Assembly (NCBI GenBank): GCA_913050035.1 | Contig: CAJXAC010000003.1 | Span: 399 to 64,398, forward strand | From: an uncultured Gammaproteobacteria bacterium | GTDB lineage: Bacteria > Pseudomonadota > Gammaproteobacteria > Pseudomonadales > Azotimanducaceae | Direction of reading: 5' to 3' | Length of the DNA: 64,000 nt | Part shown: positions 8,825 to 64,000 of the stretch, in pieces | How positions within the stretch are numbered: position 1 is the stretch's first letter | How the letters are laid out: each line of letters begins with the position of its first letter | Notes under the pieces: model-generated | Databases searched by the model: none | The model's input: the letters and a program-made list of their open reading frames with translations, nothing else | What the model was told of the DNA's origin: nothing | Program-made: the position numbers and the translations under genes

Positions 8825-8829
8825 TATCC

Positions 8830-14131: not shown

Positions 14132-15001
14132 ATCGGCGAATCCTTTGACATGGTCCATATCGTGGGCCGGGATCTGATCATGGGGATCACCTACAACTTT
14201 TGCCGGAATCCCCGCCACCGTGACGTTAGGCGGCACATCGTTGAGCACCACGCTGCCTGCTCCGACTTTGGCGTTAACGCCTACCTCGATATTGCCGATG
14301 ATCTTGCAGCCCGCAGACAGCAGCACGCCGCGGCGAATTTTCGGGTGTCGGTCACCACTGGTTTTACCGGTTCCTCCCAGCGTTACAGAGTGCAGGATTG
14401 ATACGTCATCTTCGACTACCGCGGTTTCACCGATAACAATACCTGTGGCGTGATCAAGCATGATGCCTGAACCTACGGTTGCAGCTGGGTGGAGATCCAC
14501 TCCCAGAGTTACGCTGATCTGGTTTTGAAAAAATTGCGCCAATGTGCGCCGTTCTTTTTTCCACAACCAATGGGCAATGCGGTGCGCCTGTAGGGCATGG
14601 AAACCCTTAAAGAATAAAAACGAACTGGATAAATCGTCGCAGGCAGGGTCGCGTGTATAGGTTGCAATGATGTCGATTTCCGCAGAGCTCAGAATCTCGG
14701 CATCATCATGGGTAGCCTCGGCTATGACGTCGCGGATTAACATTGTTGGCAACATGGGGTTGTCGAGTTTGCTCGCCAGACGAAAACTCAGTGCATCGCC
14801 AAACGTGCGATGATTCAGAATTGTGGCGTGGAAATAGCTGCCTAGAATAGGCTCTTCTTTAGCCTTGCGTTCGGCTTCTTCGCGCATCAGTGGCCATAGG
14901 TCTTCTGGACCGCTTATGGTTTTTAGCTCATCTTTTTCCGATCCGGCAATGATCTGCGCGAAACGCTGTTCGCTGTCGATGAGGTTGCTAACCTGAGCCA
15001 T
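14126..15001 (-). CDS. cysE: serine O-acetyltransferase
   Basis: SATase N-domain plus hexapeptide repeats (GIVIGETAVVEDDVSILHSVTLGGTGK...DRHPKI). Start chosen at MAQVSN (15001). The upstream in-frame extension to 15109 would overlap the nadK promoter region. Confidence 0.85.
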   Translation of the reverse strand: MAQVSNLIDSEQRFAQIIAGSEKDELKTISGPEDLWPLMREEAERKAKEEPILGSYFHATILNHRTFGDALSFRLASKLDNPMLPTMLIRDVIAEATHDDAEILSSAEIDIIATYTRDPACDDLSSSFLFFKGFHALQAHRIAHWLWKKERRTLAQFFQNQISVTLGVDLHPAATVGSGIMLDHATGIVIGETAVVEDDVSILHSVTLGGTGKTSGDRHPKIRRGVLLSAGCKIIGNIEVGVNAKVGAGSVVLNDVPPNVTVAGIPAKVVGDPHDQIPAHDMDHVKGFADL

Positions 15002-15153
15002 GAAGCCCTCCATTCGCTCTTTGGCGTGTATCAGCCTGAGGAGCGTAGACAGATTTGCTTTGATTGCAAGCATTGTCGCGCTCAAAACCCGTGTGTAAGG
15101 TGGGTACAAAATTTTGGATACACTGCGCGTTCATCCGTGAGAACAGTAAGCAC

Positions 15154-16059
15154 ATGGGTTCACAACAAGAAAAAATAAGCTTCCGGCGGGTCGGTGTAGT
15201 GGCCCGGCACCACACCGAGACCATACTCGACAGCGTTCTAAATGTTGAAGCGGTCCTGCAAGAGGCGCGCATTGATGTCGTGGTAGATGCTGATACAGCG
15301 GCGGTATTGCCTAACGGCGTGCATAGCGTAGTAGACAAATCTGCGCTGGAGAGCTTGGATTTGGTGGTTGTGGTAGGTGGCGACGGCAGCCTGCTTGGCT
15401 ATGGTCGCGACCTAGCGGCCTCCGGGGTTCCGGTAGTTGGCGTAAACCGAGGAGGGTTGGGCTTTCTTGCTGCGGTTTCGCCAGAGCAGATCGACGGGTC
15501 ATTCGCGCAAATTCTGCGTGGTGATTTTGCCATTGAGGAACACTTTTTATTACAGGCCTCAGTAAACCGCGAGGGTCAGGTGATCGCCAAGCAGAGCGCC
15601 CTGAATGATGTGGTGGTGAATCCGGGTAGCCCGGCACGAATGATGGAGTTTGCATTGTGGGTAGACGATGAATACGTCTATGACCAGCGCTCGGACGGTC
15701 TTATTATCGCCAGTCCCACTGGTTCAACGGCCTACGCACTATCAGCGGGTGGACCGATAATGCACCCTGGCTTAGACGCGATCGTAATCGTGCCGATGTT
15801 TCCGCATACACTGACATCACGGCCGCTAGTGGTGCCTGGCGAAAAAGTGTTGCGCTTACGTCTGTTGGATGTCTCAGATGCGGAGCCGCAAATGAGCTGT
15901 GATTCTCAGGTCCATGTAGAACTGCAGATCGGCGACGAGATAGTTATTGAAAAGCACGCGGCGCCACTGCGATTACTGTACCCGCCGGGTCACAGTTTTT
16001 ATCAATCCTGCCGCAGTAAATTGGATTGGGGTAGTCGCCTTGGCGGGCAACGCTCCTAG
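15154..16059 (+). CDS. nadK: NAD kinase
   Basis: GGDGSLL motif, NRGGLGFL, PTGSTAYALSAGGPI. ATG at 15154. Confidence 0.9.
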   Translation: MGSQQEKISFRRVGVVARHHTETILDSVLNVEAVLQEARIDVVVDADTAAVLPNGVHSVVDKSALESLDLVVVVGGDGSLLGYGRDLAASGVPVVGVNRGGLGFLAAVSPEQIDGSFAQILRGDFAIEEHFLLQASVNREGQVIAKQSALNDVVVNPGSPARMMEFALWVDDEYVYDQRSDGLIIASPTGSTAYALSAGGPIMHPGLDAIVIVPMFPHTLTSRPLVVPGEKVLRLRLLDVSDAEPQMSCDSQVHVELQIGDEIVIEKHAAPLRLLYPPGHSFYQSCRSKLDWGSRLGGQRS

Positions 16060-49770: not shown

Positions 49771-50035
49771 GTTATGAAATGTCGGTACATAAACCCGCTA
49801 GTTTACCTGCATTGAACGCTGCGCGGGCTGCTATCGACGGGAAAATTTGCCAGTCCAAGAGCCGGTGCGGTGCTGCCTTTCTGTAGAGCGGGTTTTGCTG
49901 CTCAAGCCACGGCGAGTACTGGCGTTAATGCAACCCCTAAGCTAAAGTTGGGCCAGATTGCGGCGATGGGCGCCGCTTTTCAATGAGGGGTATCAAGCGC
50001 TCTGGTCGTACTGCAAGGCCGGCGTAAAAAATCAT

Positions 50036-51820
50036 ATGCAATCCACAAATGTTGATGATCCTAACTACTTCCACAAGGTTGTAGATTGTCAGTGGGCGTG
50101 CCCAGCGCATACGCCCGTTCCTGAATATATTCGCTTAATTGCTGAGGAACGCTACACCGAAGCGTACATGCTGAATTGGGATTCCAATGTATTCCCGGGT
50201 GTACTCGGGCGTACCTGCGATCGTCCCTGTGAGCCGGCCTGTAGGCGCGTACGCACTGAAGAAAAGCCGGTCGCGATTTGTCGCCTGAAACGTGTCGCTG
50301 CCGACAATAAAGGGGATGTCAGCGCATATATGCCAGCGGTGCCCACAGCGAAAAATGGCAAGCGGATTGCGCTGATCGGCGCTGGCCCGGCATCCCTGGC
50401 GGTTGCTCGGGATTTATTGCCGTTTGGGTACGAGGTGCACTTATTCGAGAAGGATGCGAAAGGTGGTGGCTTTATGCGTTCGCAGATCCCCGCATTTCGG
50501 TTGCCAGAAGAGGTCCTTGATGAAGAGGTTGAGCGCATTTTAGATATGGGCGTTGTCTGCCATTTCGGTGAGGAAATCGGCAGTATGAAAACGCTTATGG
50601 AGCAGGACTTCGATGCCTACTTTGTCGGCACAGGGGCACCCCGTGGTCGCGATTTAGAGCTATTGGGTCGGCAAGAGGTTGATGACTATATTCATATCGG
50701 CATTGATTGGTTGTCCAGTGTGGCGTTTGGGCACATAACCGAAATCAGCGGCAAGGTGATAGTGATGGGCGGTGGTAACACCGCGATGGACTGTTGCCGA
50801 ACATCGCTGCGCCTGGGCGCAGAATCGGTCAAAGTTGTGGTGCGCTCAGCATTTGAGGTGATGAAGGCTTCGGAGTGGGAAAAAGAAGACGCGATGCGTG
50901 AAGGCATTCCGATCATCAACAACCGCCCACCAAAAGAATTTGTGCATGAAAATGGCAAGCTAAAAGGCGTGTTATTCGAGTGCGTCGAGCCAGTGCGGGG
51001 CGAGGATGGTCGTTTACGTTACGAACCGACGGGCGAGCCTGATGAGTTCATTGAGGCTGATCATGTCCTTATGGCGATTGGGCAGGATAATCATTGCCCA
51101 TGGATTGAGCGCGATTTGGGGATTGAGTTCGACAAGTGGGATTGTCCGGTACTGGATGAGGTCACGTTGCAATCAGATAACCCCAAAGTATTTTTTGGTG
51201 GTGATAGTGCATTTGGACCGGAGAATATCATTTGGGCCTCGGCCCATGCTCATCGGGCCGCAATAAGTATTCACTTGCTCTGTCAGGGTAAGGATCTGAA
51301 AGCCGATCGGCCACCCGAGGGTGTTAACTTATTATCGACCAAGATGGGCGTGCATGAGTGGGCTTATGACGCCGAACATGACGCATCGGCGCGAAATCTG
51401 GTGCCCTTGGTCGAGCACACTACGGCGCTGACCAATATCAAAGTTGAGGTTGAGCTCGGATTCGATGAGGCACTGGCCGCTCAGGAAGCGCAGCGCTGTC
51501 TCAACTGTGATGTGCAGACGGTGTTTGCGGAAAAGCTCTGTATCGAATGCGATGCATGTGTCGACATTTGTCCAATGGATTGCATCTCATTTGTTACCAA
51601 CGACGAAGAGCCGGCGTTGCGTCAGACCCTCACGGCCCCTGCCATGAATACAGAGCAAGCACTCTATGTATCTACTGATCTGCCAACCGGGCGGGTTATG
51701 GTGAAGGACGAAGACGTCTGTTTGCATTGTGGACTTTGTGCCGAGCGATGCCCAACAAACGCCTGGGATATGCAACGCTCTGTAGTGCATGTTCCGCAAT
51801 TGGGTTCGTTCGCATCATGA
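50036..51820 (+). CDS. GltD-like NAD(P)H flavoprotein fused to a 2x[4Fe-4S] ferredoxin domain (KorC-like)
   Basis: N-terminal Cys clusters (CQWACPAHTP, CDRPCEPAC), two dinucleotide folds (IALIGAGPASLAVA, VIVMGGGNTAMD), and C-terminal CLNCD...CIECDACVDICP and CLHCGLCAERCP. ATG at 50036. Confidence 0.75.
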   Translation: MQSTNVDDPNYFHKVVDCQWACPAHTPVPEYIRLIAEERYTEAYMLNWDSNVFPGVLGRTCDRPCEPACRRVRTEEKPVAICRLKRVAADNKGDVSAYMPAVPTAKNGKRIALIGAGPASLAVARDLLPFGYEVHLFEKDAKGGGFMRSQIPAFRLPEEVLDEEVERILDMGVVCHFGEEIGSMKTLMEQDFDAYFVGTGAPRGRDLELLGRQEVDDYIHIGIDWLSSVAFGHITEISGKVIVMGGGNTAMDCCRTSLRLGAESVKVVVRSAFEVMKASEWEKEDAMREGIPIINNRPPKEFVHENGKLKGVLFECVEPVRGEDGRLRYEPTGEPDEFIEADHVLMAIGQDNHCPWIERDLGIEFDKWDCPVLDEVTLQSDNPKVFFGGDSAFGPENIIWASAHAHRAAISIHLLCQGKDLKADRPPEGVNLLSTKMGVHEWAYDAEHDASARNLVPLVEHTTALTNIKVEVELGFDEALAAQEAQRCLNCDVQTVFAEKLCIECDACVDICPMDCISFVTNDEEPALRQTLTAPAMNTEQALYVSTDLPTGRVMVKDEDVCLHCGLCAERCPTNAWDMQRSVVHVPQLGSFAS

Positions 51821-53655
51821 GTGGAAAAATGCAAGTAAAGTACAACGATTTCGTAATTCGCTTCGCCAATGTGAACGGCTCCGGTTCAGCTAGCGCTAAC
51901 GGTATGTTCGCTAAAGCATTGTTTCGTATGGGTATTCCAGTTGCGACTCGGAATATTTTTCCGTCCAACATTCAGGGATTGCCAACGTGGTTTGAGGTAC
52001 GAGTCAGCGAGCAGGGCTACCTCGGACGGCGCGAGGGTGTGGACATCATGGTGGCCATGAATGCGGAGACTTTAGTTGAAGATGTTGCCAGCGTGTCGCC
52101 TGGTGGCTACCTGCTATACGACAATTCGAAGCCCTTGGCTAAAACCTTGCGCCGAGATGATGTCAATGAGATTGGTATTCCAATAGCGACCATGATGCTG
52201 CCAGAGTTTGCTGACCCGAAACAACGCAGCCTATTCAAGAACATCACATATTTGGGCGCTTTAGCCGGATTGCTGAATATTGAATTTGATGTGATCACCG
52301 GCATGGTGGCTACGCAATATAAAGGCAAAGATGCGCTTATCGCACCGAATATCCACGCCTTAGAGCTAGGGCGAAATTACGCTTTGCAGTACTTACAGGC
52401 ACCATTGCCGTTGCAAGTCAGGCGCTCTGATGCCGTTGGCGATCGTATTATGATGGACGGAAATGATGCCGCGGGACTCGGCGCCGTCTATGGCGGTGCT
52501 ACTGTCTGTGCTTGGTATCCTATTACTCCGTCTACGTCGGTGGCCGAAAGTTTTGAAAACCATGCGAATCGACTGCGTGTTGATGAAACCAGTGGTAAGA
52601 AGAAATTTGCCATCATTCAGGTAGAAGACGAGTTGGCGGCCATTGGTGTGGTGATTGGAGCGGCGTGGAATGGAGCCCGTGCTTTCACAGCTACAAGCGG
52701 CCCGGGTATTTCACTTATGTCTGAGTTTTTGGGTCTGGCCTATTTTGCTGAGATCCCGGCCGTGGTTTGGGATATTCAGCGTTCTGGCCCGTCTACCGGC
52801 ATGCCTACGCGTACCCAACAAGGTGATTTGATTGGTGCTGCATATGCGTCTCATGGTGATACCAAGCACCCGTTACTTTTTCCAGCAACGCCAAAAGAGT
52901 GTTTTGACTTTGCCACAGCTGCTTTGGATCTTGCGGATCGTGCGCAGACGCCCATTCTGGTCATGAGTGATCTAGAGCTGGGAATGAACGACAACCTAAG
53001 CGAACCACTGCAGTGGGATGACGCTGTTCGTTATGATCGCGGTAAAGTGCTCGATAGTGAGGCGCTAGAAAACAGTGAAGTATTCGGCCGTTATCTGGAT
53101 GTGGACGGCGATGGAATTGGCTACAGAACGCTGCCAGGGACCCATCCTGATAAGGGTGCGTTCTTTACCCGCGGTACTTCCCGAGATGAATTCGCCGCCT
53201 ATACCGAGTCGCCGGAAGCTTATGAACGCAACATGCAGCGTTTGGAGCTAAAGTGGCAGACCATCCGCGGCTTGGTGCCTGCTGCAGAAATCGACGATCA
53301 AAAGCGCCGAGTGGGTGTGTTGTTCTTCGGCACCACTGCACTGCCGATGCCAGAAGCATTAGATCTCTTGCACGCAGACGGAATAGCCCTAGACAGCTGC
53401 CGTGTCCGTGCATTCCCATTTGGTGCGGAGGTGGAAGCGTTTGTGCAAGAGCATGATTTGATATTCGTTGTAGAACAGAATCGTGATGCTCAGATGCGTA
53501 CGTTATTGATTAACGAATTGCAGACGGCGCCAGCCAAACTCGTACCTGTCCTCTACTATGCGGGTCTGTCTATATCGGCGGACACGATTCATCAGCAGAT
53601 CAATGAATACTTTACCGCCAACAAGTTATCTCGAATCTCGGAGGTGCAATCATGA
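51817..53655 (+). CDS. korA: 2-oxoacid:acceptor oxidoreductase, alpha subunit
   Basis: The ATG overlaps the upstream stop (ATGA). FANVNGSGSASAN and YPITPST motifs typical of KorA/OFOR alpha. Confidence 0.85.
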   Translation: MSGKMQVKYNDFVIRFANVNGSGSASANGMFAKALFRMGIPVATRNIFPSNIQGLPTWFEVRVSEQGYLGRREGVDIMVAMNAETLVEDVASVSPGGYLLYDNSKPLAKTLRRDDVNEIGIPIATMMLPEFADPKQRSLFKNITYLGALAGLLNIEFDVITGMVATQYKGKDALIAPNIHALELGRNYALQYLQAPLPLQVRRSDAVGDRIMMDGNDAAGLGAVYGGATVCAWYPITPSTSVAESFENHANRLRVDETSGKKKFAIIQVEDELAAIGVVIGAAWNGARAFTATSGPGISLMSEFLGLAYFAEIPAVVWDIQRSGPSTGMPTRTQQGDLIGAAYASHGDTKHPLLFPATPKECFDFATAALDLADRAQTPILVMSDLELGMNDNLSEPLQWDDAVRYDRGKVLDSEALENSEVFGRYLDVDGDGIGYRTLPGTHPDKGAFFTRGTSRDEFAAYTESPEAYERNMQRLELKWQTIRGLVPAAEIDDQKRRVGVLFFGTTALPMPEALDLLHADGIALDSCRVRAFPFGAEVEAFVQEHDLIFVVEQNRDAQMRTLLINELQTAPAKLVPVLYYAGLSISADTIHQQINEYFTANKLSRISEVQS

Positions 53656-54707
53656 CTTTTGTGGCAAAGCCAAAAGTTCACCACCCAAATCTGCCCCTAA
53701 ACGAGCTTGGACTGACACGGCGCGACTATGAGGGCTCGGTCTCGACACTGTGCGCAGGCTGTGGTCATGACTCTGTAAGCGCTGCAATCGTGCAGGCTTG
53801 TGCGGAATTATCGTTGCCGCCACATCGGTTTGCGAAAGTTTCAGGTATCGGCTGTTCTTCCAAAACACCGAGCTATTTTTTGAATAAGAGCCATGGCTTC
53901 AACTCTGTGCATGGGCGCATGCCCAGCGTTATGACGGGCGCTAATTTGGCCAATCGAGAATTGCTGGGTATTGGCGTATCTGGTGACGGCGACAGTGCAT
54001 CCATAGGATTGGGGCAATTTGCACATATCGTGCGGCGGCGTATCAATATGCTGTACTTGGTTGATAACAACGGCACCTACGGTTTAACCAAGGGTCAGTT
54101 TTCTGCGACCAATGACAAAGGCTCAACCAGTAAGAAAGGTGCTCCCAATCTCTATGAGCCAATCGATCTGGTCAGCATGGCCCTGCAAATTGGCGCAACA
54201 TTTGTTGCACGCAGTTTTTCCGGTGATAAAACGCAATTGGTTCCGCTGATAAAGGCGGCGCTAAAACACAAGGGGATGGCGTTTATTGATGTGATCTCTC
54301 CATGTGTAGCGTTCAACAACCATAATGGTTCGACCAAGAGCTATGAGTTCGTTCGTGAGCACACTCAAGAACTGGTAAATGCGGATCTAATCATGACTCA
54401 TCCCGAGGTCACTGTAGACTATGCGGAAGGCAGCCGCGAGGATGTGTCGATGCCGGACGGCAGCACTCTGCGCCTGCATAAACTAGATGCGGATTATGAT
54501 GCCCATGATCGGGTGGGCGCGTTGAACTATGTGCAGCGCTCCCAGGAGCAGGGCGAAGTCGTTACTGGTTTGCTCTATGTCGATCCTGACCCGGTGGAAT
54601 GTCATGACATCATGGACACTGTGGACCAGCCGTTAAATGAGTTGAACGAGGCCCAGTTGTGTCCGGGCAGTGCGGCCCTTGCCGACATAAATGCCAGTTA
54701 CCGCTAG
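53652..54707 (+). CDS. korB: 2-oxoacid:ferredoxin oxidoreductase, beta subunit (TPP-binding)
   Basis: ATGA overlap with korA. CAGCGH Cys motif, GIGCSS, and GDGDSASIG...DNNGTYGLTKGQ TPP motif. Confidence 0.85.
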   Translation: MTFVAKPKVHHPNLPLNELGLTRRDYEGSVSTLCAGCGHDSVSAAIVQACAELSLPPHRFAKVSGIGCSSKTPSYFLNKSHGFNSVHGRMPSVMTGANLANRELLGIGVSGDGDSASIGLGQFAHIVRRRINMLYLVDNNGTYGLTKGQFSATNDKGSTSKKGAPNLYEPIDLVSMALQIGATFVARSFSGDKTQLVPLIKAALKHKGMAFIDVISPCVAFNNHNGSTKSYEFVREHTQELVNADLIMTHPEVTVDYAEGSREDVSMPDGSTLRLHKLDADYDAHDRVGALNYVQRSQEQGEVVTGLLYVDPDPVECHDIMDTVDQPLNELNEAQLCPGSAALADINASYR

Positions 54708-54880: not shown

Positions 54881-56350
54881 GTGGCATTACCCAGTCTTGA
54901 TGATTACTTCCCCGATTGGAAAGAACGAGAAGCGCTTGCTGAAGCAATGATCCCGTTGATCGGGAAGTTGTACCGGAAGAACGTCGTGGTTTACTGCTAC
55001 GGTCGTGCGCTCTACAACCAAAGCGTGACCCAGTTGATGAAAGCCCACCGCTATGTCCGCCAGCTTGCGCAGAATGAATTATCGGAATTTGAAACCTACC
55101 CCATCTTAGTGGCGATGAGCGAGCTTGATCTTGGGCCTTGTCATGTCGATGTGGGCAAAATGGCCTCCACGCTAATCGAAAGATCGATCAAAGATGAGGC
55201 TGAAATTAAGCAATATGTGCAGGAGCAATGTGCCAAGGTCGTTGGTGTCACAACGCCGCCGTTAGCGGCGCCCCAAGACATTGTGTTATTCGGCTTTGGC
55301 CGCATTGGGCGGCTGTTAGCGCGTCTGTTGATCGAGAAGACCGGTGGTGGCACCCAGTTGCGACTGCGCGCTATTGTTGTGCGGCGAAGTGGCGCTAACG
55401 ATCTTGCGAAACGGGCGGGCTTGCTGCGCCGTGACTCAGTGCACGGAAGTTTCCAAGGCACCCTCCGGGTAGACGAAGAAAACGAATGCATTATCGCTAA
55501 CGGCAATGTTATTCGGGTGATCTATGCGGACGGGCCCGACAAAGTCGACTATACGTCCTACGGCATAAACAATGCCATCATCATAGACAATACCGGTGCC
55601 TGGAGTGATGAAGAGGGTCTATCGCAACACCTCAAGTCCAAGGGCGCTGCCCGGGTAATTCTTACGGCACCAGGCAAGGGTGGCATAAAAAATATCGTCG
55701 CAGGTATTAACCATAGCGATATTGAGCCAGAAGATGCTGTGCTGGCGGCGGCCAGTTGCACCACTAATGCGATCGTGCCGGTGTTGAAAGCGGTCAACGA
55801 CCGCTTTGGTATTGTCAACGGGCATATGGAAACCGTGCATGCCTATACTAATGATCAAAATTTGATCGATAACTTCCATAAGAAGAACCGTCGCGGTCGT
55901 GGCGCGCCGCTCAATATGGTGATTACTGAAACTGGTGCATCTTCTGCGGTAACCAAGCTATTACCAGAGTTGGATGGCAAGCTCACCGGCAACGCCATTC
56001 GCGTACCGACGCCAAATGTTTCCCTAGTGATATTGAATTTGACTCTGGATGAAGCAACAAGCCAAGAAGATATGAAGGAGTTCCTTCGTACCTCGGCGTT
56101 GTATGGCAAATTGCAACGACAGATAGATTTCACTACTTCGCCGGATATTGTCTCTTCAGATTTAGTCGGTAACCGGCATGCTTGTATTGTCGATGGCGAA
56201 GCCATTATCGCTAAAGACAATCGGGTCGTGCTCTATGTTTGGTACGACAACGAGTTCGGGTATTCATGCCAAGTTGTGCGTGTGGTGCAAAAGATGGCTG
56301 GGATCTCGTATCCGTTGATTCCAGAAAATGCCGAAGATATGGGGTTTTAG
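54881..56350 (+). CDS. gap: glyceraldehyde-3-phosphate dehydrogenase, long form with an approximately 130-aa N-terminal extension
   Basis: FGFGRIGRLL NAD fold begins near aa 137. Catalytic ASCTTNA and WYDNEFGY. GTG start preceded by AAGAGGAA. Confidence 0.9.
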   Translation: MALPSLDDYFPDWKEREALAEAMIPLIGKLYRKNVVVYCYGRALYNQSVTQLMKAHRYVRQLAQNELSEFETYPILVAMSELDLGPCHVDVGKMASTLIERSIKDEAEIKQYVQEQCAKVVGVTTPPLAAPQDIVLFGFGRIGRLLARLLIEKTGGGTQLRLRAIVVRRSGANDLAKRAGLLRRDSVHGSFQGTLRVDEENECIIANGNVIRVIYADGPDKVDYTSYGINNAIIIDNTGAWSDEEGLSQHLKSKGAARVILTAPGKGGIKNIVAGINHSDIEPEDAVLAAASCTTNAIVPVLKAVNDRFGIVNGHMETVHAYTNDQNLIDNFHKKNRRGRGAPLNMVITETGASSAVTKLLPELDGKLTGNAIRVPTPNVSLVILNLTLDEATSQEDMKEFLRTSALYGKLQRQIDFTTSPDIVSSDLVGNRHACIVDGEAIIAKDNRVVLYVWYDNEFGYSCQVVRVVQKMAGISYPLIPENAEDMGF

Positions 56351-57859: not shown

Positions 57860-57888
57860 TTGACAGCGTCTGAGCGCCTCCCTACCAT
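57860..57888 (+). promoter_or_regulatory. possible promoter for tRNA-Ala
   Basis: TTGACA at 57860-57865, a 17-nt spacer, TACCAT at 57883-57888, then a GC-rich discriminator (GCGCGCAG) before the tRNA 5' end at 57901. Confidence 0.35.
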
Positions 57889-57900
57889 GCGCGCAGTCTT

Positions 57901-57976
57901 GGGGCCATAGCTCAGCTGGGAGAGCGCGTGAATGGCATTCACGAGGTCGGGAGTTCGATCCTCCCTGGCTCCACCA
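57901..57976 (+). tRNA. tRNA-Ala (anticodon GGC), CCA encoded
   Basis: Hand-folded 76-nt cloverleaf. Acceptor stem GGGGCCA/TGGCTCC with the Ala identity pair G3:U70. D-arm GCTC/GAGC. Anticodon stem CGTGA/TCACG with loop ATGGCAT. T-arm GGGAG-TTCGATC-CTCCC. Confidence 0.95.
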
Positions 57977-58371: not shown

Positions 58372-58461
58372 AACAATTACTTTGATTAGATCGTGATGGT
58401 AAAATTCGCCGCGGGGGCGCATTAAACATAATTAATATAAAAACAGAGGAGCAAAATACAC

Positions 58462-58782
58462 ATGCCTAGAATTAAGTACATCGAACACAACGGTACTGAG
58501 CACGAAGTTGACGCTGAGGTCGGCATTTCGGTGATGCAGGCTGCTCTTGATGATCTTGTCCCCGGTATCGACGCAGATTGTGGCGGCGAGTGCTCTTGTG
58601 CGACGTGTCATGTAATGGTTAAAGAAGAGTGGCTGGCTAAAACTGGTGCCCCAGACGCCGGCGAAGAATCTATGCTTGATTTAAATCCGGAGCGTCAGCC
58701 GAATTCCCGATTGTCGTGCCAGATTGCCGTTACCGAAGAGCTTGATGGCTTGGTTGTAGACCTACCGGAGTTTCAATTCTAA
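58462..58782 (+). CDS. 2Fe-2S ferredoxin (putidaredoxin/adrenodoxin type)
   Basis: [12 protein letters not shown] plus the distal SRLSCQI cysteine. 106 aa. GAGGAG RBS. Confidence 0.9.
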
Positions 58783-60026
58783 TGAGCGAAGCAGCACCGC
58801 TGAGGATGATTGATTTTCAGCCCCAAGATATCCCGTTGGAAGATTTTGATATAAGCCAGCGGGAATTGTGGGCTGAAGATGCGAAGATGGAATATTTCGC
58901 GCGCCTTCGTGACGAAGCGCCAGTTCACTTTTGTAAAGATTCTGAATTCGGACCGTATTGGTCGCTGACCCGCTATGCCGACATCATGGAAGTTGATTCA
59001 AACTGGCAGGATTTTTCCTCTGAGCCGGCGATCACGATTATCGATCCCGAAGAAGACTTCCCCTTACCTATGTTTATTGCGATGGATCCGCCAAAACACG
59101 ACGATCAGCGCAAAACTGTCCAAGGTGCGGTGGCGCCGGCGAACTTAAAAAACCTAGAAAGCACGATTCGTGGCCGCGTACAAAAGGTCTTGGATGATCT
59201 TCCTTTGGGCGAGGAATTCGATTGGGTCGATCGAGTATCGATTGAACTTACGACTCAGATGTTGGCGACGTTGTTCGATTTCCCTTTTGAAGATCGACGC
59301 AAGTTGACACGTTGGTCGGATGTCGCGACCGGCGGCCCGGAGACTGGTGTTGTCGAAACTGAAGAGCAGCGCCAAGAAGAGCTTATGGAATGTTTGGCGT
59401 ACTTTACGCGCCTATGGCAAGAGCGGCAGGAGCAGGGGCTGTCGAATGACTTTATCTCTATGCTCGCGCATGGTGAGGCAACCAAGGATATGGCGCCTGA
59501 AGAATATTTAGGCAATCTGGTTCTGTTGATCGTTGGGGGTAATGACACAACACGCAACTCGATGACGGGTGGTGTGCTGGCCCTGAATGAAAATCCTGGA
59601 GAATATGCCAAGTTGCGCAATAACCCAGGCGTAATACCGAACATGGTGTCGGAGATCATTCGCTGGCAGACGCCGCTTGCGCATATGCGCAGAATTGCTA
59701 ACCGTGATTACGAAATTAATGGCCAGACTATAAAGCAGGGCGACAAGGTCATCATGTGGTACTTGTCTGGGAATCGCGATGAGCGTGCCATTGAAAATCC
59801 TAACGAGTTTATTATTGATCGCGCGCGCGCTCGGCAGCATCTGTCATTTGGATTTGGCCCACATCGTTGTATGGGTAATCGTTTGGCGGAGCTCCAATTG
59901 CGTATTCTCTGGGAAGAGATTCAGCAGCGCTTTCATATGATTGAAGTGGTAGGCGATGTTGAGCTTGTGCCGTCAAATTTTGTTCATGGATACACTAAAA
60001 TGCCGGTAGTAGTGCATCCTCTGTAG
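58782..60026 (+). CDS. cytochrome P450, CYP153 family (alkane/terminal hydroxylase type)
   Basis: Long colinear matches to my memory of CYP153A6: PMFIAMDPPKHD, EFDWV.RVSIELTT.MLATLFDFP, LLIVGGNDTTRNSMTGGVLALNE, SEIIRWQTPL.HMRR, and the haem loop HLSFGFGPHRCMGNRLAELQLRILWEE. Confidence 0.9.
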   Translation: MSEAAPLRMIDFQPQDIPLEDFDISQRELWAEDAKMEYFARLRDEAPVHFCKDSEFGPYWSLTRYADIMEVDSNWQDFSSEPAITIIDPEEDFPLPMFIAMDPPKHDDQRKTVQGAVAPANLKNLESTIRGRVQKVLDDLPLGEEFDWVDRVSIELTTQMLATLFDFPFEDRRKLTRWSDVATGGPETGVVETEEQRQEELMECLAYFTRLWQERQEQGLSNDFISMLAHGEATKDMAPEEYLGNLVLLIVGGNDTTRNSMTGGVLALNENPGEYAKLRNNPGVIPNMVSEIIRWQTPLAHMRRIANRDYEINGQTIKQGDKVIMWYLSGNRDERAIENPNEFIIDRARARQHLSFGFGPHRCMGNRLAELQLRILWEEIQQRFHMIEVVGDVELVPSNFVHGYTKMPVVVHPL

Positions 60027-60099
60027 CGTGAGTCTCTAGCTGACATTGCGGGTAGTGCAGGGGACTTGCACTAGTTATCTTCATTGCGGGGGGCAAAAA

Positions 60100-61305
60100 G
60101 TGACGCAACATATAGGACGACAAGGCCGTTCATGGGGCGTCTGGCTGTATGCGTCAGTCGCAATGTTTGCATGCTCAATGTGCTTTGCGGCGTCTCTATC
60201 CGAACCGGTCAGTAAGACATCTATTGCGCCGCTGCAACCAGAGACGATCTATGTCCAGCGTTTACAGCAACCGTCACCGCACTGGCTGATTCTTAACGAT
60301 CCCAACTTCTCGGGTAACATGGATTCTAAAATCTATGTGATTGATGCCGACCGCAATCACATGCTGGGCATGCTTTCTGCTGGCGGTTGGCGTAATGCTG
60401 TTGAGTACAGTCCGGATTTTTCCACGATTTATTCCCCAGAAACTTACTATACCCGCACCACCCGAGGTCAGCGCACGGATGTTTTGAGTTTTTACGATGT
60501 GTCCTCTTTGAGTGTGATTGATGAGGTTGAAATTCCAGCAAAGAGGGGCTCGGGGGCTGCCCATCGTGCATACAGTGGGCGCAGCGACGATGGTCGTTTT
60601 GTTTATGTGTTCAATATGACACCAGCCATGACGGTAACGGTGGTTGATGTACGCGCGCGCAAGGTTACTGCAGAAATTAGCACGGATGGATGCGCCATGA
60701 TTTATCCGAGCGGCAATCTTTCGTTTCTTAGTTTATGCGGTAATGGCCGGATGCGGCAGACCATTTTGACGACCCAGGGCGAACTCGAGCAAACCCGCTT
60801 CACCGATGTTTTCTTCGATCCGCAACAAGATCCATTGACGGAAAAAGCCTCGCGTTTAAACGGCGATTGGTATTTCGTGAGTTTTCACGGTGCAGTGCAT
60901 CGGGTGGAGGCTTCGGATGCTGGGGTCAATCCGAGTAAGCGTTGGGCGCTGCTTAAGCCGTCTGAGTTAGATCAGGGCTGGCGACCCGGTGGTGCACATT
61001 TTGTCGCCAGTCATCGCTCGGGACTTTTGTTTTTGGGAATGAATCGAGATGGCCCGGATTCACACAAGCAACCGGCACAAGAAATTTGGGTGATGAATAT
61101 AGACGATATGTCCCAGCATAAAGTCATCGAGCCACCTGGACCGGTCACTCAACTGGCGGTATCTCAAGATTCCCAGCCGTTATTAGCAGCTGCCAGTGAA
61201 GGTCCTGAAATATACCTTTTCGATGCCCTCACGGGAGTCCAGAAAAATAGCCTCACTGCGCCGATTTTAGGTGCGGGTATTCTGCAATTTGTCGACGCGC
61301 GCTGA
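60100..61305 (+). CDS. mauB: TTQ amine dehydrogenase heavy (large) subunit homologue, beta-propeller
   Basis: RGQRTDVLSFYD, DQGWRPGG and SQDSQPLLAA parallel the remembered MADH heavy-chain RGERTDYVEVFD, ADGWRPGG and SQDEKPLLYA. GTG at 60100 gives a Sec-like signal. The track start is the TTG at 60046, and an ATG at 60163 is also in frame. Confidence 0.8.
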   Translation: MTQHIGRQGRSWGVWLYASVAMFACSMCFAASLSEPVSKTSIAPLQPETIYVQRLQQPSPHWLILNDPNFSGNMDSKIYVIDADRNHMLGMLSAGGWRNAVEYSPDFSTIYSPETYYTRTTRGQRTDVLSFYDVSSLSVIDEVEIPAKRGSGAAHRAYSGRSDDGRFVYVFNMTPAMTVTVVDVRARKVTAEISTDGCAMIYPSGNLSFLSLCGNGRMRQTILTTQGELEQTRFTDVFFDPQQDPLTEKASRLNGDWYFVSFHGAVHRVEASDAGVNPSKRWALLKPSELDQGWRPGGAHFVASHRSGLLFLGMNRDGPDSHKQPAQEIWVMNIDDMSQHKVIEPPGPVTQLAVSQDSQPLLAAASEGPEIYLFDALTGVQKNSLTAPILGAGILQFVDAR

Positions 61306-61880
61306 TGACTTGGCTTGTTCTATCGAGTGTTTTGCTCGCGATCTGTATTGTCGCACTGAGTATCGTTACGTTTTCGTTAGCGCGCCAAATTGGTGTATTG
61401 CACGAACGTTCACAGCCAGTGGCAAGCGAGCTGCGGACCGCGTCCGTTGGCGAAGGCACTAAGCTAGAGAGACTGGACATACCTGTGGATCATTCGGTAG
61501 ACACAGTGAGTCTGTTATTTGTTGCTACAGGCTGTCCTCTGTGCCGTATGTTGCATTCGCCTTTTTCGGTGCTGAAAGAAAATCATGCGGCTCTAGGTGC
61601 TTACTGGGTGTTTGCTGGGGATACGCCCGAAGCGGTTGGTGCCTATGCTGCTGAGCATGGCATTGCGGCGGCGAGTATGTTGGTCGAACCTCAGTTAGCT
61701 ATTCAATGTGCGGTAATTAATACGCCCACATTGGTTTTGCTGCAGCGCGATAACCAGGGGTGGCAGTTGCAAGCACGGCGGAACATAACCAGTTCCCGCC
61801 AATTGCAGACGCTAATGGATGCTTATCTTGTGCAAGCCGAAAAAGTTAGTGCGGATTATAGATTGGGAGTGCGAGCATGA
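61305..61880 (+). CDS. mauD: MauD-like membrane-anchored thioredoxin-fold protein
   Basis: N-terminal TM helix followed by LARQIGVLHER (compare MauD LARQVGVLYER) and a CPLC redox motif. The start overlaps the mauB stop (TGATG). Confidence 0.75.
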   Translation: MTWLVLSSVLLAICIVALSIVTFSLARQIGVLHERSQPVASELRTASVGEGTKLERLDIPVDHSVDTVSLLFVATGCPLCRMLHSPFSVLKENHAALGAYWVFAGDTPEAVGAYAAEHGIAAASMLVEPQLAIQCAVINTPTLVLLQRDNQGWQLQARRNITSSRQLQTLMDAYLVQAEKVSADYRLGVRA

Positions 61881-62392
61881 GTCGATTTGATGATTGGATT
61901 GATCGAGCGACCCGTAAAATCGCGCAACGTTCATCGCGGCGGCGTTTTTTGGCGCGTTTTGGTAGCGCTTTGGTGGCCGCAACAACCCTACCGGTATTAC
62001 CGGTAGGGCGCAGTCATGCAGCGGGCCCCCAAGCGGCTGAGGAAGGCGATCCATTGGCCTGCGACTATTGGCGACATTGCGCAATTGACGGTTATTTGTG
62101 CGGTTGCTGTGGCGGATCCGTCAATTCATGTCCACCGGGTACTGAAATTTCGCCTGTGAGTTGGATCGGTACCTGCACGAACCCTGTAGACGGGCGCGAC
62201 TATGTGATTTCTTACAATGATTGTTGTGGTAAATCTGGCTGTGGCCGTTGTTTTTGCAATACCAACGAAGGAGATAAGCCGATTTATATGCCGGCAAAGA
62301 GCAATGATATTAACTGGTGCCTCGGAACCAGTACGAATGCCTATCATTGTTCAACAGCCGTTGTTATTGGTACCGCATCGGCGCAATCCTAG
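61877..62392 (+). CDS. mauA: TTQ amine dehydrogenase light (small) subunit homologue
   Basis: Tat-like signal SSRRRFLARFGSALVAA. The core CDYWRHCAIDGYLCGCCGGSVNSCPPGTEISPVSWIGTC...DCCG...INWCLG...YHCS is colinear with the remembered MADH beta subunit, including both TTQ Trp positions. ATGA overlap with mauD. Confidence 0.85.
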   Translation: MSRFDDWIDRATRKIAQRSSRRRFLARFGSALVAATTLPVLPVGRSHAAGPQAAEEGDPLACDYWRHCAIDGYLCGCCGGSVNSCPPGTEISPVSWIGTCTNPVDGRDYVISYNDCCGKSGCGRCFCNTNEGDKPIYMPAKSNDINWCLGTSTNAYHCSTAVVIGTASAQS

Positions 62393-62511
62393 GACTGATT
62401 TTCGCTGTTTCTGATTCAGTCACAGGGCAGAGTGTTATACAGTGTGGCCGTGGGGAATTCTCTGCGCGATCAGCAGTAGAGGTCTAACAAATTAAACTTA
62501 AGGAGTAAGCG

Positions 62512-63012
62512 ATGTCGCTTGTAGCTGTAATGGAAACCAATAAAGGCACGATTCGGTTGGACCTTTATGCTGAGGAAACGCCTATGACTGTGGCGAATTT
62601 CGTCAATTTGGCGCAACGAGGTTTTTATGACGGCTTGTCTTTTCATCGAGTCATTGCGGATTTTATGATTCAAGGCGGATGCCCACTTGGTACCGGAACC
62701 GGTGGCCCTGGGTATCGATTTGGTGACGAGTTCAATAGCGCTTTGCGCCATGATGGGCCTGGTAAATTCTCAATGGCGAATGCCGGACCAGGAACCAATG
62801 GTTCACAGTTTTTTATTACTCATGTACCAACGCCATGGTTAGACGATGCGCATACAATTTTTGGTGCTGTGCAAGGGGATGCGGATCAAGAAATTGTTAA
62901 TTCCATTATTCAGGGTGATCAAATTGTGGCTGTGACGATTGAGGGTGATGCCACCGACTTATTGGCATCGGTTCCCGAAGTTCAGGAGTGGAACGCGCAA
63001 CTCGACGCTTAG
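62512..63012 (+). CDS. ppiB: peptidyl-prolyl cis-trans isomerase, cyclophilin type (cytoplasmic)
   Basis: [37 protein letters not shown]. Confidence 0.9.
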
Positions 63013-63049: not shown

Positions 63050-64000
63050 TTGCAAGAACAGTTACTGTTTGCCGATCTGAAGGTACTAGACGTTGGCAGT
63101 TGGATTGCGGCTCCGGTTGCGACTACGATGCTGGCGGACTACGGGGCACAGGTTATAAAGGTTGAAGCCCCTGATCTCGGCGACGGTTATCGAAACTTTG
63201 CTGATATGCCTGGGTCACCGGATGCGGACACCAATTACACATGGCATATGGACAACCGCAACAAGCGCTCGATTAGCTTGAATCTGAAAAGTGAGGCCGG
63301 GCGTAAAATTCTCCGGCAAATGGTAAGCGAGTGCGATGTCTATGTCACAAATCTGCCCCAGCCGATGCGTCGGCAGTGGCAATTGACCTATGATGATCTG
63401 GCGACGGTTAACCCGTCTATGATTTATGCCTCGTTAACGGCATATGGAGAGAAAGGGCCTGAGCGTGATCGCGAAGGCTTCGACTTAGTCGCTTACTGGT
63501 CGCGGTCGGGTCTAATGGACCTTGTGCACGCACCTGGAGCGCCACCAGGGCCAGCATTGCCCGGCATGGGCGATCACCCCACGGCAGTAACTTTATATGC
63601 GGGTATCGTCACCGCGTTGCTCAAGCGTGGGCAAACGGGTCAAGGCAGCCATGTCCATACCTCGTTAATGGCGAATGGCGTATGGTCAGCGTCATGCATC
63701 GCTCAAGGGGTATTTGCTGACGCCGATTTCAATAATTATTTTGCTAATCAATCGCGTCAATTTACGCGCTTACTCTATGAGGCGAATGACGGCCGATGGC
63801 TGCAGTTTTCCATGGTGCGTACTGATGATGAGGTTGATGCGTTATTTGTTGCCCTGGACAGGCCCGATTTACTGATTGATCCGCGTTTCGCCACCTCTGA
63901 GGCGCGGTTAGAAAATGGTGAGGCGCTAAAAGCTGAACTGATAAAAGCCATCGCGCAGCGCTCCTCGGCGGACTGGATGGGCATATTTGCAGAGTCTGGT
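63050..64000 (+). CDS. CoA transferase, family III (5' part; continues past the right edge)
   Basis: TTG at 63050 follows AGGAGGGTGG. My translation gives LKVLDVGSWIAAPVATTMLADYGAQVIKVEAPDLGDGYR...GFDLVAYWSRSGLMD, open to the window end. It is not in the ORF track because there is no stop. Confidence 0.8.
   Translation, partial: MQEQLLFADLKVLDVGSWIAAPVATTMLADYGAQVIKVEAPDLGDGYRNFADMPGSPDADTNYTWHMDNRNKRSISLNLKSEAGRKILRQMVSECDVYVTNLPQPMRRQWQLTYDDLATVNPSMIYASLTAYGEKGPERDREGFDLVAYWSRSGLMDLVHAPGAPPGPALPGMGDHPTAVTLYAGIVTALLKRGQTGQGSHVHTSLMANGVWSASCIAQGVFADADFNNYFANQSRQFTRLLYEANDGRWLQFSMVRTDDEVDALFVALDRPDLLIDPRFATSEARLENGEALKAELIKAIAQRSSADWMGIFAESG

Follow-up and report, generated by a model that had tools for sequence, protein, structure and literature searches.

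A ferredoxin–CYP153A pair and an aromatic amine dehydrogenase-like gene set are probably independent neighbors in a marine gammaproteobacterial backbone

Do a ferredoxin–cytochrome P450 pair and a TTQ amine dehydrogenase, encoded side by side on one strand, belong to a single pathway? The initial annotation of the 64-kb stretch of DNA analyzed here (the window) proposed that the two systems form one functional operon and knew of no described operon of this type; we likewise found no published description of a Fdx–CYP153/TTQ dehydrogenase arrangement in the literature. All five genes, with their overlaps and gaps, lie in the window sequence where that annotation had placed them, and their packing is as tight as it had described (Table 1). 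The ferredoxin stop and the P450 start share TAATG (58780-58784), the heavy-subunit and MauD-like genes overlap in TGATG (61303-61307), and the MauD-like and light-subunit genes overlap in ATGA (61877-61880). The P450 stop codon is TAG at 60024-60026, and a 119-nt gap follows mauA. A consensus scan of the 90-nt gap 5' of the ferredoxin gene returned no sigma-70 match. The comparisons below suggest that the locus probably holds two independent, individually ordinary modules that happen to adjoin in a chromosomal backbone conserved across a clade of uncultured marine gammaproteobacteria.

Table 1. Features of the five-gene locus and its flanks, in window coordinates.
Feature	Coordinates	Strand	Basis or remark
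Intergenic region 5' of ferredoxin gene, AT-rich, 90 nt	58372..58461	+	Presumed promoter of the Fdx-P450 unit
[2Fe-2S] ferredoxin (Fdx), adrenodoxin/putidaredoxin-type, 106 aa	58462..58782	+	Pfam Fer2, 2.5e-11
CYP153A-type cytochrome P450, 414 aa	58782..60026	+	PDB best match CYP153A7 (3RWL)
Hairpin in P450-mauB gap, 9-bp stem, 3-nt loop	60053..60073	+	Terminator-like site scan
Heavy (alpha) subunit, AADH-like TTQ amine dehydrogenase, 401 aa	60100..61305	+	Pfam Me-amine-dh_H, 1.2e-35
Membrane-anchored thioredoxin-fold protein, divergent MauD-like paralog, 191 aa	61305..61880	+	TIGR02661, weak match
Light (beta) subunit, TTQ carrier, 171 aa	61877..62392	+	Pfam Me-amine-dh_L, 2.2e-52
Cyclophilin-type PPIase, backbone gene	62512..63012	+	Pfam Pro_isomerase, 7.3e-41
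Family III CoA-transferase (CoAT), backbone gene, cut by window end	63050..64000	+	Pfam CoA_transf_3, 2.9e-80

Profile and homology searches confirmed the families first named for all five proteins: the adrenodoxin-type ferredoxin, the CYP153-type P450, the MADH/AADH-type heavy and light subunits and, weakly, the middle ORF as MauD. The ferredoxin has its cluster cysteines at C40, C46, C49 and C86, and its orthologs (72-95% identity) immediately precede the P450 in every relative; it is the predicted redox partner of the P450. The latter aligns with CYP153A7 at 573 bits and 65.7% identity (261/397), and its I-helix LLIVGGNDTTRN (GGNDTTRN), EIIR (EXXR) and heme loop FGFGPHRCMG mark it, by sequence, as a true CYP153A type. 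The named comparison systems are the CYP153A omega-hydroxylases of alkanes and alkyl chains, CYP153A7 of Sphingopyxis macrogoltabida (3RWL) and CYP153A33 of Marinobacter (5FYF). The window shares with them these P450 motifs and a ferredoxin gene immediately 5', which appears translationally coupled to the P450 gene through TAATG. A ferredoxin reductase and an AraC-type regulator are usual in described CYP153 operons, whereas the window pair has neither in cis and sits in a housekeeping backbone, not in an alkane-degradation cluster. The CYP153A6 operon carries both Fdx and FdR (PMC5607502).

The dehydrogenase subunits are closest to aromatic amine dehydrogenase (AADH), nearer to it than to MADH. 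Against PDB sequences the heavy subunit, which has a signal-like hydrophobic segment at its N-terminus, scores 141.5 bits with AADH alpha and about 105 bits with MADH alpha. The light subunit best matches AADH beta (167 bits); it has 14 Cys, a twin-arginine leader (SRRRFLARFG from residue 19) and the cofactor tryptophans W96 and W147, both conserved within SWIGTC and NDINWC in the alignment to AADH beta. The middle ORF, labeled a mauD homolog in the initial annotation, is MauD-like, but it reaches only 36.9 bits against TIGR02661 (cut-off 188.6), where the canonical MauD of relatives reaches 151-163 bits. It has no Pfam match, carries a CPLC motif at residues 77-80 and is 27% identical over 90 aa to that canonical MauD, which is encoded downstream. 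A MauD-like ORF (27-84% identity) separates mauB from mauA at every marine-clade locus. The window copy is a divergent, fast-evolving MauD-like paralog.

Two known systems provide the closest comparisons for this gene set. With the AADH of Alcaligenes faecalis (aauBEDA; PDB 2AGL and others), its best match in the PDB, it shares both TTQ tryptophans, a Cys-rich light chain with a long RR leader, MauE and MauD accessory genes, and the lack of a linked mauG. The aau cluster reportedly has no mauG, in an account given by Chistoserdov in 2001. The gene order differs (B-E-D-A in aauBEDA, B-D'-A ... PPIase-CoAT-E-D here), as does the presence of the extra MauD-like paralog (D'), and no cytochrome c, azurin or amicyanin gene lies near the window dehydrogenase. 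A mono-heme cytochrome c gene directly follows mauA in almost all non-marine relatives. The MADH mau clusters of Paracoccus and Methylobacterium (mauFBEDACJGMN) have in common with the window the heavy and light families, the TTQ tryptophans and MauD/MauE-type accessory proteins. Unlike MADH, the window proteins all score below the NCBIfam equivalog cut-offs (heavy 133 vs 454, light 169 vs 197, MauD 37 vs 189), and mauG, mauF, mauC (amicyanin), mauJ, mauM and mauN were not found.

The biogenesis partners were located by comparison with the closest relative (L016), in which the CoA-transferase gene is followed by MauE (14264-14767) and the canonical MauD (14826-15425); in the source genome these two would sit about 260 nt and 820 nt past base 64000. 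MauE of the relatives is assigned to PF07291. Every mau-plus locus that extends far enough has both MauE and canonical MauD, and no mau-less locus has them. It is this pair, downstream of PPIase and CoA-transferase, that co-varies with mauB-D-A, which speaks for two modules. The PPIase occurs in mau-plus and mau-less relatives alike; it belongs to neither module and parts mauA from the MauE-MauD pair. Two mau-plus loci (L015 and L024) have no CoA-transferase, and there MauE directly follows the PPIase.

How far does the adjacency extend? The initial annotation had allowed that it might be unique to the strain. Our neighborhood survey found the five-gene arrangement in at least nine GTDB species-representative MAGs (labeled K189A clade, Ca. 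Azotimanducaceae or Pseudomonadales; uncultured marine gammaproteobacteria) and in many metagenome contigs; the adjacency is nevertheless confined to one syntenic clade, in which each module has been lost separately. The backbone order is the same in all relatives (OFOR-GAPDH-like-GltX-tRNA-Ala-pterin dehydratase-Fdx-P450-[variable slot]-PPIase-CoAT-SelD-like fusion). Because this synteny is kept, the Fdx-P450/mau adjacency would be inherited along with unrelated housekeeping genes. Whether mau genes are present or not, P450 orthologs (77-99% identity) are found at this same backbone position. The ferredoxin–P450 pair is retained in five mau-less lineages (L004-L011; P450 77-82% identity), where the variable slot holds an alpha/beta-hydrolase, a nitroreductase or nothing. 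Conversely, compared with its sibling L024, L015 has lost about 1065 bp from inside the P450 by a clean deletion, with mauB, D', A, E, D and the ferredoxin intact. Since relatives lose either set and keep the other, two ordinary modules explain the locus better than one new pathway. Outside the clade, a CYP153-type P450 is found at 0/19 non-marine genome loci of the same dehydrogenase subfamily, and the nearest outgroup heavy chain (L124, 57% identity) has a TetR/beta-lactamase-like context that includes neither Fdx nor P450. The adjacency is kept with heavy chains down to 53-55% identity (L024, L125) and in lineages of 46% to 55% GC, an observation that we count against a reading as two modules.

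The junction between P450 and mauB bears directly on transcription. The heavy-subunit ORF has two candidate starts, TTG 60046 and GTG 60100. The latter is more likely, because it follows a conserved GGGGGG Shine-Dalgarno kept in relatives, because orthologs are 401 aa long, and because a start at 60046 would put the hairpin inside the ORF; it leaves a 73-nt gap after the P450. The initial annotation had looked to a promoter or terminator within 60027-60100 as a sign of separate units. The first-listed site of the terminator-like scan is there, a hairpin whose T-rich tail (GTTATCTTCATT) is weak and whose folding energy is unexceptional (z = -1.33), and a consensus scan of the gap gave no promoter-like site. 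Despite sequence divergence, a hairpin recurs at about the same place in most folded orthologous loci, with a T6 tail in L012 and L023; L024 has none in the gap. In mau-less L006, L008 and L010, canonical rho-independent terminators lie directly 3' of the P450. These terminators, together with the hairpin at the same position elsewhere, argue for two modules. The window hairpin is terminator-like and probably leaky. Given a hairpin without a good U-tract and no promoter in the gap, mauBDA may depend on the Fdx-P450 promoter, and co-transcription by read-through is possible. We count the poor U-tract and the lack of a promoter against separate modules.

The same features would suit one inducible five-gene operon for a class of substrates requiring both enzymes, such as long-chain alkylamines or aryl-alkylamines (terminal hydroxylation in the cytoplasm, oxidative deamination in the periplasm), or answering a shared inducer. 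The shared strand, the short gap and the persistence of the arrangement across species favor it, as does the finding that P450s of a second, unrelated family lie no more than 10 kb from homologous TTQ clusters in sediment and soil bacteria, in varying arrangements (5/19 genome loci; 5/29 metagenome loci longer than 8 kb). We count this recurrence, too, against two modules. The annotated Woeseiaceae loci, however, carry that P450 inside large aromatic-catabolic islands, which suffice by themselves to explain its proximity; a looser pathway-level link of P450s with these dehydrogenases may still exist. Further, either module is lost without the other, three mau-less sister lineages have canonical terminators after the P450, the enzymes work in different compartments, and neither the locus nor the set of window ORFs tested yielded an aldehyde or alcohol dehydrogenase, a regulator or a transporter. 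An operon of this kind is thus unlikely, and the junction hairpin, the single-clade adjacency and the independent losses do not bear out the one first proposed.

A recent horizontal insertion of the mau cassette 3' of the P450, with adjacency as a chance event of one lineage, is very improbable. The content of the P450-PPIase slot does differ among relatives, but neither GC nor skew is anomalous across the mau genes, and the cassette keeps to that slot in lineages whose heavy chains are 53-99% identical. Moreover, one mau-less lineage (L010 and L011) still has a mauA pseudogene (in-frame stop, N-terminus gone) and MauD fragments; these remnants point to a cassette ancestral to the clade and later lost.

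The initial annotation also raised, much more speculatively, an oxygenation step by the P450 in cofactor maturation. In such a role the P450 and ferredoxin would hydroxylate or cross-link the light-subunit Trp in the cytoplasm before Tat export, in place of MauG. The twin-arginine leader and the absence of a MauG-like di-heme gene from the window and from within 10 kb in marine-clade relatives agree with it, and there is a precedent in QhpG, a cytoplasmic monooxygenase that modifies Trp before export in other tryptophylquinone enzymes; the first hydroxylation of TTQ biogenesis is autocatalytic by presumption only (PMC7876137). This role is scarcely credible, as L015 has every mau gene and no P450, mau-less lineages conserve the Fdx-P450 pair, the P450 is a typical CYP153A close to an alkane hydroxylase, and, of the 19 non-marine loci of the subfamily, 14 lack a P450 within 10 kb and almost none has MauG nearby.

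We therefore return to two independent modules. The first would consist of the ferredoxin and CYP153A genes as a bicistronic, translationally coupled unit that ends in the hairpin or a terminator; it would encode a cytoplasmic class I P450 system, with the reductase encoded elsewhere. Judging by its identity to CYP153A7, the P450 most likely hydroxylates alkanes or alkyl chains at the terminal position. The second would be a periplasmic AADH-like TTQ primary-amine dehydrogenase of three translationally coupled genes (heavy subunit, MauD-like paralog and twin-arginine light subunit), with MauE and canonical MauD further downstream, outside the window. Read-through may account for part of mau transcription, with neither module dependent on the other. 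The dehydrogenase would convert a primary amine to an aldehyde and ammonium, plausibly for nitrogen scavenging.

The five open reading frames and all of their junctions lie in the window sequence exactly where the initial annotation had placed them. The ferredoxin and P450 genes have TAATG (58780-58784) in common, the end of the heavy-subunit gene mauB and the start of the MauD-like frame D' have TGATG in common, and D' and the light-subunit gene mauA have ATGA in common; gaps of 90 nt before the ferredoxin gene and 119 nt after mauA flank the group. The mauB start is likely the GTG at 60100, because a conserved GGGGGG Shine-Dalgarno sequence precedes it and the orthologues are 401 aa long, and the P450-mauB gap is therefore 73 nt. 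In several relatives (L001, L013 and L019-L021; L numbers denote homologous loci from MAGs and metagenomes) a gene for a DUF1761 membrane protein occupies the position of the gap after mauA (62393-62511); this gene is absent in the window and is present only as a fragment in L018.

Comparison with solved structures bears out the CYP153-like character that had been claimed for the P450. The best match is CYP153A7 (3RWL), with 573 bits and 261/397 identical residues (65.7%), and other CYP153A structures score 480-556 bits. A P450 belongs to CYP153 if it shares 40% or more of its amino acids with named members of the family, and to subfamily A from 55% upward; the window P450 lies above both thresholds. 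The required core motifs (I-helix GGNDTTRN, EXXR and the haem-thiolate loop FxxGxHxCxG) are all found in the translation as LLIVGGNDTTRNSM, EIIRW and FGFGPHRCMG, aligned with those of CYP153A7. By these measures the protein is a bona fide, orthodox CYP153A; its most likely reaction is the hydroxylation of alkanes or alkyl chains at the terminal methyl group. The ferredoxin, with its cysteines Cys40/46/49/86, is translationally coupled to the P450. No classical ferredoxin reductase is adjacent to the P450, and neither a reductase nor an aldehyde dehydrogenase nor a regulator is found among 10 candidate ORFs elsewhere in the window. The pair (Fdx-P450) would constitute a cytoplasmic class I P450 system, in which the ferredoxin carries electrons to CYP153A from a reductase encoded elsewhere.

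The attribution of the genes that follow to an enzyme like methylamine dehydrogenase (MADH) or aromatic amine dehydrogenase (AADH) was confirmed by Pfam matches for both subunits (the beta-propeller PF06433 for the heavy subunit, E = 1.2e-35, and the small Cys-rich PF02975 for the light subunit) and by similarity to the AADH and MADH subunits in the PDB. There the light subunit reaches 167 bits against AADH beta, and the heavy subunit 141.5 bits against AADH alpha versus about 105 bits against MADH; both subunits are nearer AADH than MADH. None of the three proteins reaches the curated equivalog cut-off for MADH proper in NCBIfam (TIGR02658/02659/02661), the scores being 133.2 versus 454.45 for the heavy subunit, 169.4 versus 196.85 for the light subunit and 36.9 versus 188.6 for the D' product. 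The last of these had been named mauD; with its membrane anchor and CPLC motif it is indeed MauD-like, if weakly so, but it is not the canonical MauD. Alignment with AADH and MADH light chains shows that both tryptophans that form the TTQ cofactor are kept, as W96 (SWIGTC) and W147 (NDINWC), the equivalents of W57 and W108 of MADH beta. The light subunit has a twin-arginine leader.

Positions of the genes in the window and of the related genes and slots in homologous loci
Feature	Locus	Position	Strand	Remarks
Ferredoxin gene	window	58462-58782	+	adrenodoxin-type [2Fe-2S]; Pfam Fer2 2.5e-11
P450 gene	window	58782-60026	+	CYP153A by sequence; stop at 60024-60026
Heavy-subunit gene mauB	window	60100-61305	+	likely GTG start at 60100
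MauD-like gene D'	window	61305-61880	+	TIGR02661 36.9 bits
Light-subunit gene mauA	window	61877-62392	+	PF02975 2.2e-52
MauE + canonical MauD pair	L016	14264-15425		PF07291, TIGR02661
MauE + canonical MauD pair	L001	13836-14951		PF07291, TIGR02661
MauE + canonical MauD pair	L012	13269-14433		PF07291, TIGR02661
Variable slot	L006, L007			empty
Variable slot	L008-L011			alpha/beta-hydrolase
Variable slot	L004			hydrolase + nitroreductase + DUF1761
Variable slot	L005			additional oxidoreductases
Second-family P450, Woeseiaceae	L031	8619-9839	-	
Second-family P450, Woeseiaceae	L033	about 8500-9655	-	
Second-family P450, soil MAG	L035	14383-15594		
Second-family P450, soil MAG	L036	17955-19166		
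Second-family P450, soil MAG	L039			
Second-family P450 + mauB, metagenome	L044, L046, L102, L104, L108, L114, L117			

Homologues of the P450 number in the thousands, and many marine ones are 77-99% identical to it. The contigs that carry the latter have one backbone in common, in the order Fer4/Pyr_redox_2 protein, 2-oxoacid:ferredoxin oxidoreductase (two subunits), GAPDH-like protein, GltX, tRNA-Ala, pterin-4a-carbinolamine dehydratase, ferredoxin, P450, a variable slot, PPIase, CoA-transferase and a SelD-like fusion. At P450 identities of at least 90% the slot holds mauB-D'-A, and at 77-82% (L004-L011) it is without these genes. In two of the mau-less loci, L010 (10119-10466) and L011, a mauA pseudogene (77% identical, with an in-frame stop and without N-terminus or leader) lies between the alpha/beta-hydrolase gene and PPIase, and MauD fragments are found further downstream; these lineages therefore formerly had mau genes, which decayed while Fdx-P450 stayed. 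An rve_3 transposase fragment lies near this pseudogene.

Several backbone genes have features of their own. In the window the upstream trio (49958-54707) encodes a Fer4_20/Pyr_redox_2/Fer4 protein and the alpha and beta subunits of the 2-oxoacid:ferredoxin oxidoreductase. The GAPDH-family gene (54881-56350) encodes an unusually long protein of 489 aa (Gp_dh_N + Gp_dh_C), which is 74-98% identical across all relatives. The tRNA-Ala(GGC) gene lies at 57901-57976, flanked by gltX and the gene for pterin-4a-carbinolamine dehydratase, and a sigma-70-like promoter match (10/12) is seen just upstream of it, at 57860-57888.

From the side of the dehydrogenase, 92 heavy-subunit homologues were detectable in a set of 5.8 billion proteins. 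A scan of GTDB species representatives with a 9-sequence heavy-chain alignment (a 14-sequence version was too divergent) yielded 28 heavy-chain loci, nine from the marine clade, that is, the syntenic uncultured relatives of the window organism, and 19 non-marine. Naive longest-ORF calls, spurious and over-extended in high-GC loci, were replaced by those of a GC3-filtered caller; some calls are imperfect (for example, the over-extended mauB of L033), and tblastn anchors were relied on. The full Fdx-P450-mauB-D'-A array is present in eight of the nine marine-clade loci, and the ninth contig begins inside mauB. Marine heavy-chain identity goes as low as 55% (L024, and also L125 from Tara). The metagenomic locus L015 (heavy chain 54%) keeps the backbone, the ferredoxin and the mau genes, with a P450 site of only 330 bp. 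Alignment of L015:8672-9000 with its sibling L024:820-2052 reveals that about 1065 bp have been cleanly deleted from within the P450 gene, of which only ~77 nt at the start and ~90 nt at the end are left; an orphan but intact ferredoxin gene stands directly upstream of intact mau genes. The next-closest heavy chain (L124, 57%), the nearest outgroup to those of the marine clade, is found in the order TetR, beta-lactamase-like protein, mauB and mauA, with no ferredoxin, P450 or MauD. The beta-lactamase-family protein of this locus (L124:1083-5102) has 576 aa, and the B and A genes overlap with no MauD between them; the arrangement may point to an amine route that involves an amidase or esterase.

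Three states are thus seen: P450 and mau genes together, P450 without mau genes (L004-L011) and mau genes with the P450 deleted (L015). Given these states and the mauBA genes of L124 without a P450, Fdx-P450 and mauB-D'-A were not found to be gained or lost jointly across genomes. CYP153 and TTQ genes are adjacent in a single syntenic clade only.

The dehydrogenase set of this clade is larger than the window shows. Wherever a marine locus with mau genes is long enough to show it, the gene for the membrane protein MauE (PF07291) and then a gene for a 199-200-aa thioredoxin-fold protein follow PPIase, usually with the CoA-transferase gene between PPIase and MauE. The thioredoxin-fold protein is a good MauD (TIGR02661 151-163 bits, CPIC motif). 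The pair of MauE and canonical MauD is absent from every mau-less locus. In L016, the closest relative, MauE and MauD start about 260 nt and 820 nt past the equivalent of the window end (base 64000); it follows that the window organism has a split TTQ set, B-D'-A ... E-D, which continues past base 64000. Non-marine relatives, in contrast, have the classical order mauB-E-D-A, and their D matches the downstream MauD and not the product of 61305-61880. A mono-haem cytochrome c gene follows mauA directly in almost all of these non-marine relatives (L026-L043; e.g., L029:12757-13260), whereas the marine clade is without one: the 64-kb window and the available flanks of the marine relatives encode neither a c-type cytochrome nor a cupredoxin (amicyanin, azurin). 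No ORF with two CxxCH motifs, as in a MauG-like di-haem protein, occurs in the 64-kb window or within 10 kb on either side in the marine-clade relatives, and the locus has a single CxxCH match, the CATCH of the ferredoxin itself.

The P450-mauB gap contains a 9-bp hairpin (60053-60073), the first-listed terminator-like site in the scan of the region, with a weak tail (GTTATCTTCATT). A hairpin is present near the same position in most orthologous loci despite sequence divergence (none in L024), with a T6 run after it in L012 and L023, and textbook rho-independent terminators follow the P450 stop in the mau-less loci L006, L008 and L010. The argument from the hairpin rests on this positional conservation and on the terminators of the sister lineages; in folding energy the gap does not stand out (z = -1.33). 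No promoter was recognized by scan or by eye in the gap (60027-60099), including the stretch from hairpin to GTG, and an Rfam search for regulatory RNA in the region returned the tRNA-Ala only. Of the terminator and the independent promoter that the initial annotation had considered for this junction, the sequence shows a hairpin whose T-tail is weak, and no promoter match. The hairpin would derive from a terminator that closed an autonomous Fdx-P450 unit, and in lineages with mau genes it may leak sufficiently for mauB-D'-A to be transcribed by read-through.

These observations point to Fdx-P450 and the dehydrogenase as two known enzyme systems that are neighbors by descent. Of the five-gene functional operon proposed at the outset, the gene identities and the packing stand, but the functional union of the P450 with the dehydrogenase does not agree with the three presence/absence states. 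Same-strand tight packing within a syntenic backbone is, as a caution, weak evidence for function.

A lead comes from a different P450 family, which is enriched close to the homologous TTQ clusters of sediment and soil bacteria. In 5 of the 19 non-marine genome loci a P450 lies no more than 10 kb from the mau genes. These P450s resemble the CYP107/BioI type; those of Woeseiaceae and of soil MAGs are 53-56% identical to each other, but their identity to the window P450 is only 24-27%. When metagenomes were scanned with this second family, 80 loci were obtained; seven of them carry mauB, five of these being among the 29 loci that exceed 8 kb, and the arrangements vary, divergent or on the same strand. 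The co-occurrence with mauB is far above chance for so rare an enzyme. Annotation of the Woeseiaceae loci places the genes within large aromatic-catabolic islands (aldehyde dehydrogenase, PaaK-like ligase, FAA-hydrolase, CHMI, a DHDPS-like gene, Rieske dioxygenase subunits, MarR and AraC regulators and a TonB receptor), and shared pathway membership is therefore sufficient to explain the proximity of P450 and TTQ genes there. This explanation is not transferable to the marine clade, because no such genes surround its pair. The alpha/beta-hydrolase in the slot of mau-less marine loci shows no significant similarity to the hydrolase beside the soil second-family P450. P450s may have been recruited repeatedly beside AADH-type TTQ dehydrogenases to act on the same amine-derived carbon skeletons (CYP153A in the marine clade, CYP107/BioI-like enzymes in Woeseiaceae and soil), with the marine mauB-D'-A read through from the Fdx-P450 promoter; the array would then be a facultative operon, serving a surface-ocean route for alkyl- or aryl-alkyl-amines that has gone unrecognised. 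We consider this doubtful. The literature searched, also under the clade names and for aau/mauG, gave nothing relevant and no described natural CYP153-TTQ operon, in agreement with the initial annotation. Were the coupling true, it would represent a new catabolic logic that joins a cytoplasmic P450 to a periplasmic quinoprotein, and it might bear on how TTQ gets its first oxygen.

The bolder suggestion, that the P450 is a TTQ maturase, fares worse. In the current view of TTQ biogenesis, the substrate of MauG is a 7-hydroxy-Trp that has been formed beforehand, with a first hydroxylation presumed to be autocatalytic, and in the CTQ enzyme QHNDH the hydroxylation is carried out by the cytoplasmic flavoprotein QhpG (PMC7876137); a cytoplasmic P450 maturase is therefore conceivable in principle. 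The L015 deletion, the retention of Fdx-P450 in mau-less lineages and the orthodox CYP153A sequence argue strongly against it. Recent horizontal transfer of the mau cassette was rejected, as there is no composition anomaly and the mau-less relatives hold remnants.

The dehydrogenase module comprises the heavy and light subunits with MauE, MauD and the MauD-like paralogue. The heavy subunit, by its signal peptide, and the light subunit, by its RR leader, would both be exported, and MauE, MauD and the paralogue would assist in the maturation of disulfides and TTQ. The alpha2beta2 enzyme would convert a primary amine, the probable substrate, to aldehyde and ammonium and pass the electrons to a periplasmic acceptor. 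The anatomy of the marine AADH-like set is hereby corrected: it is split, it has an extra MauD paralogue, and it is without a linked cytochrome c or MauG. Nitrogen scavenging is a plausible physiological role, and the dehydrogenase may matter for the scavenging of amine nitrogen by abundant uncultured marine Gammaproteobacteria.
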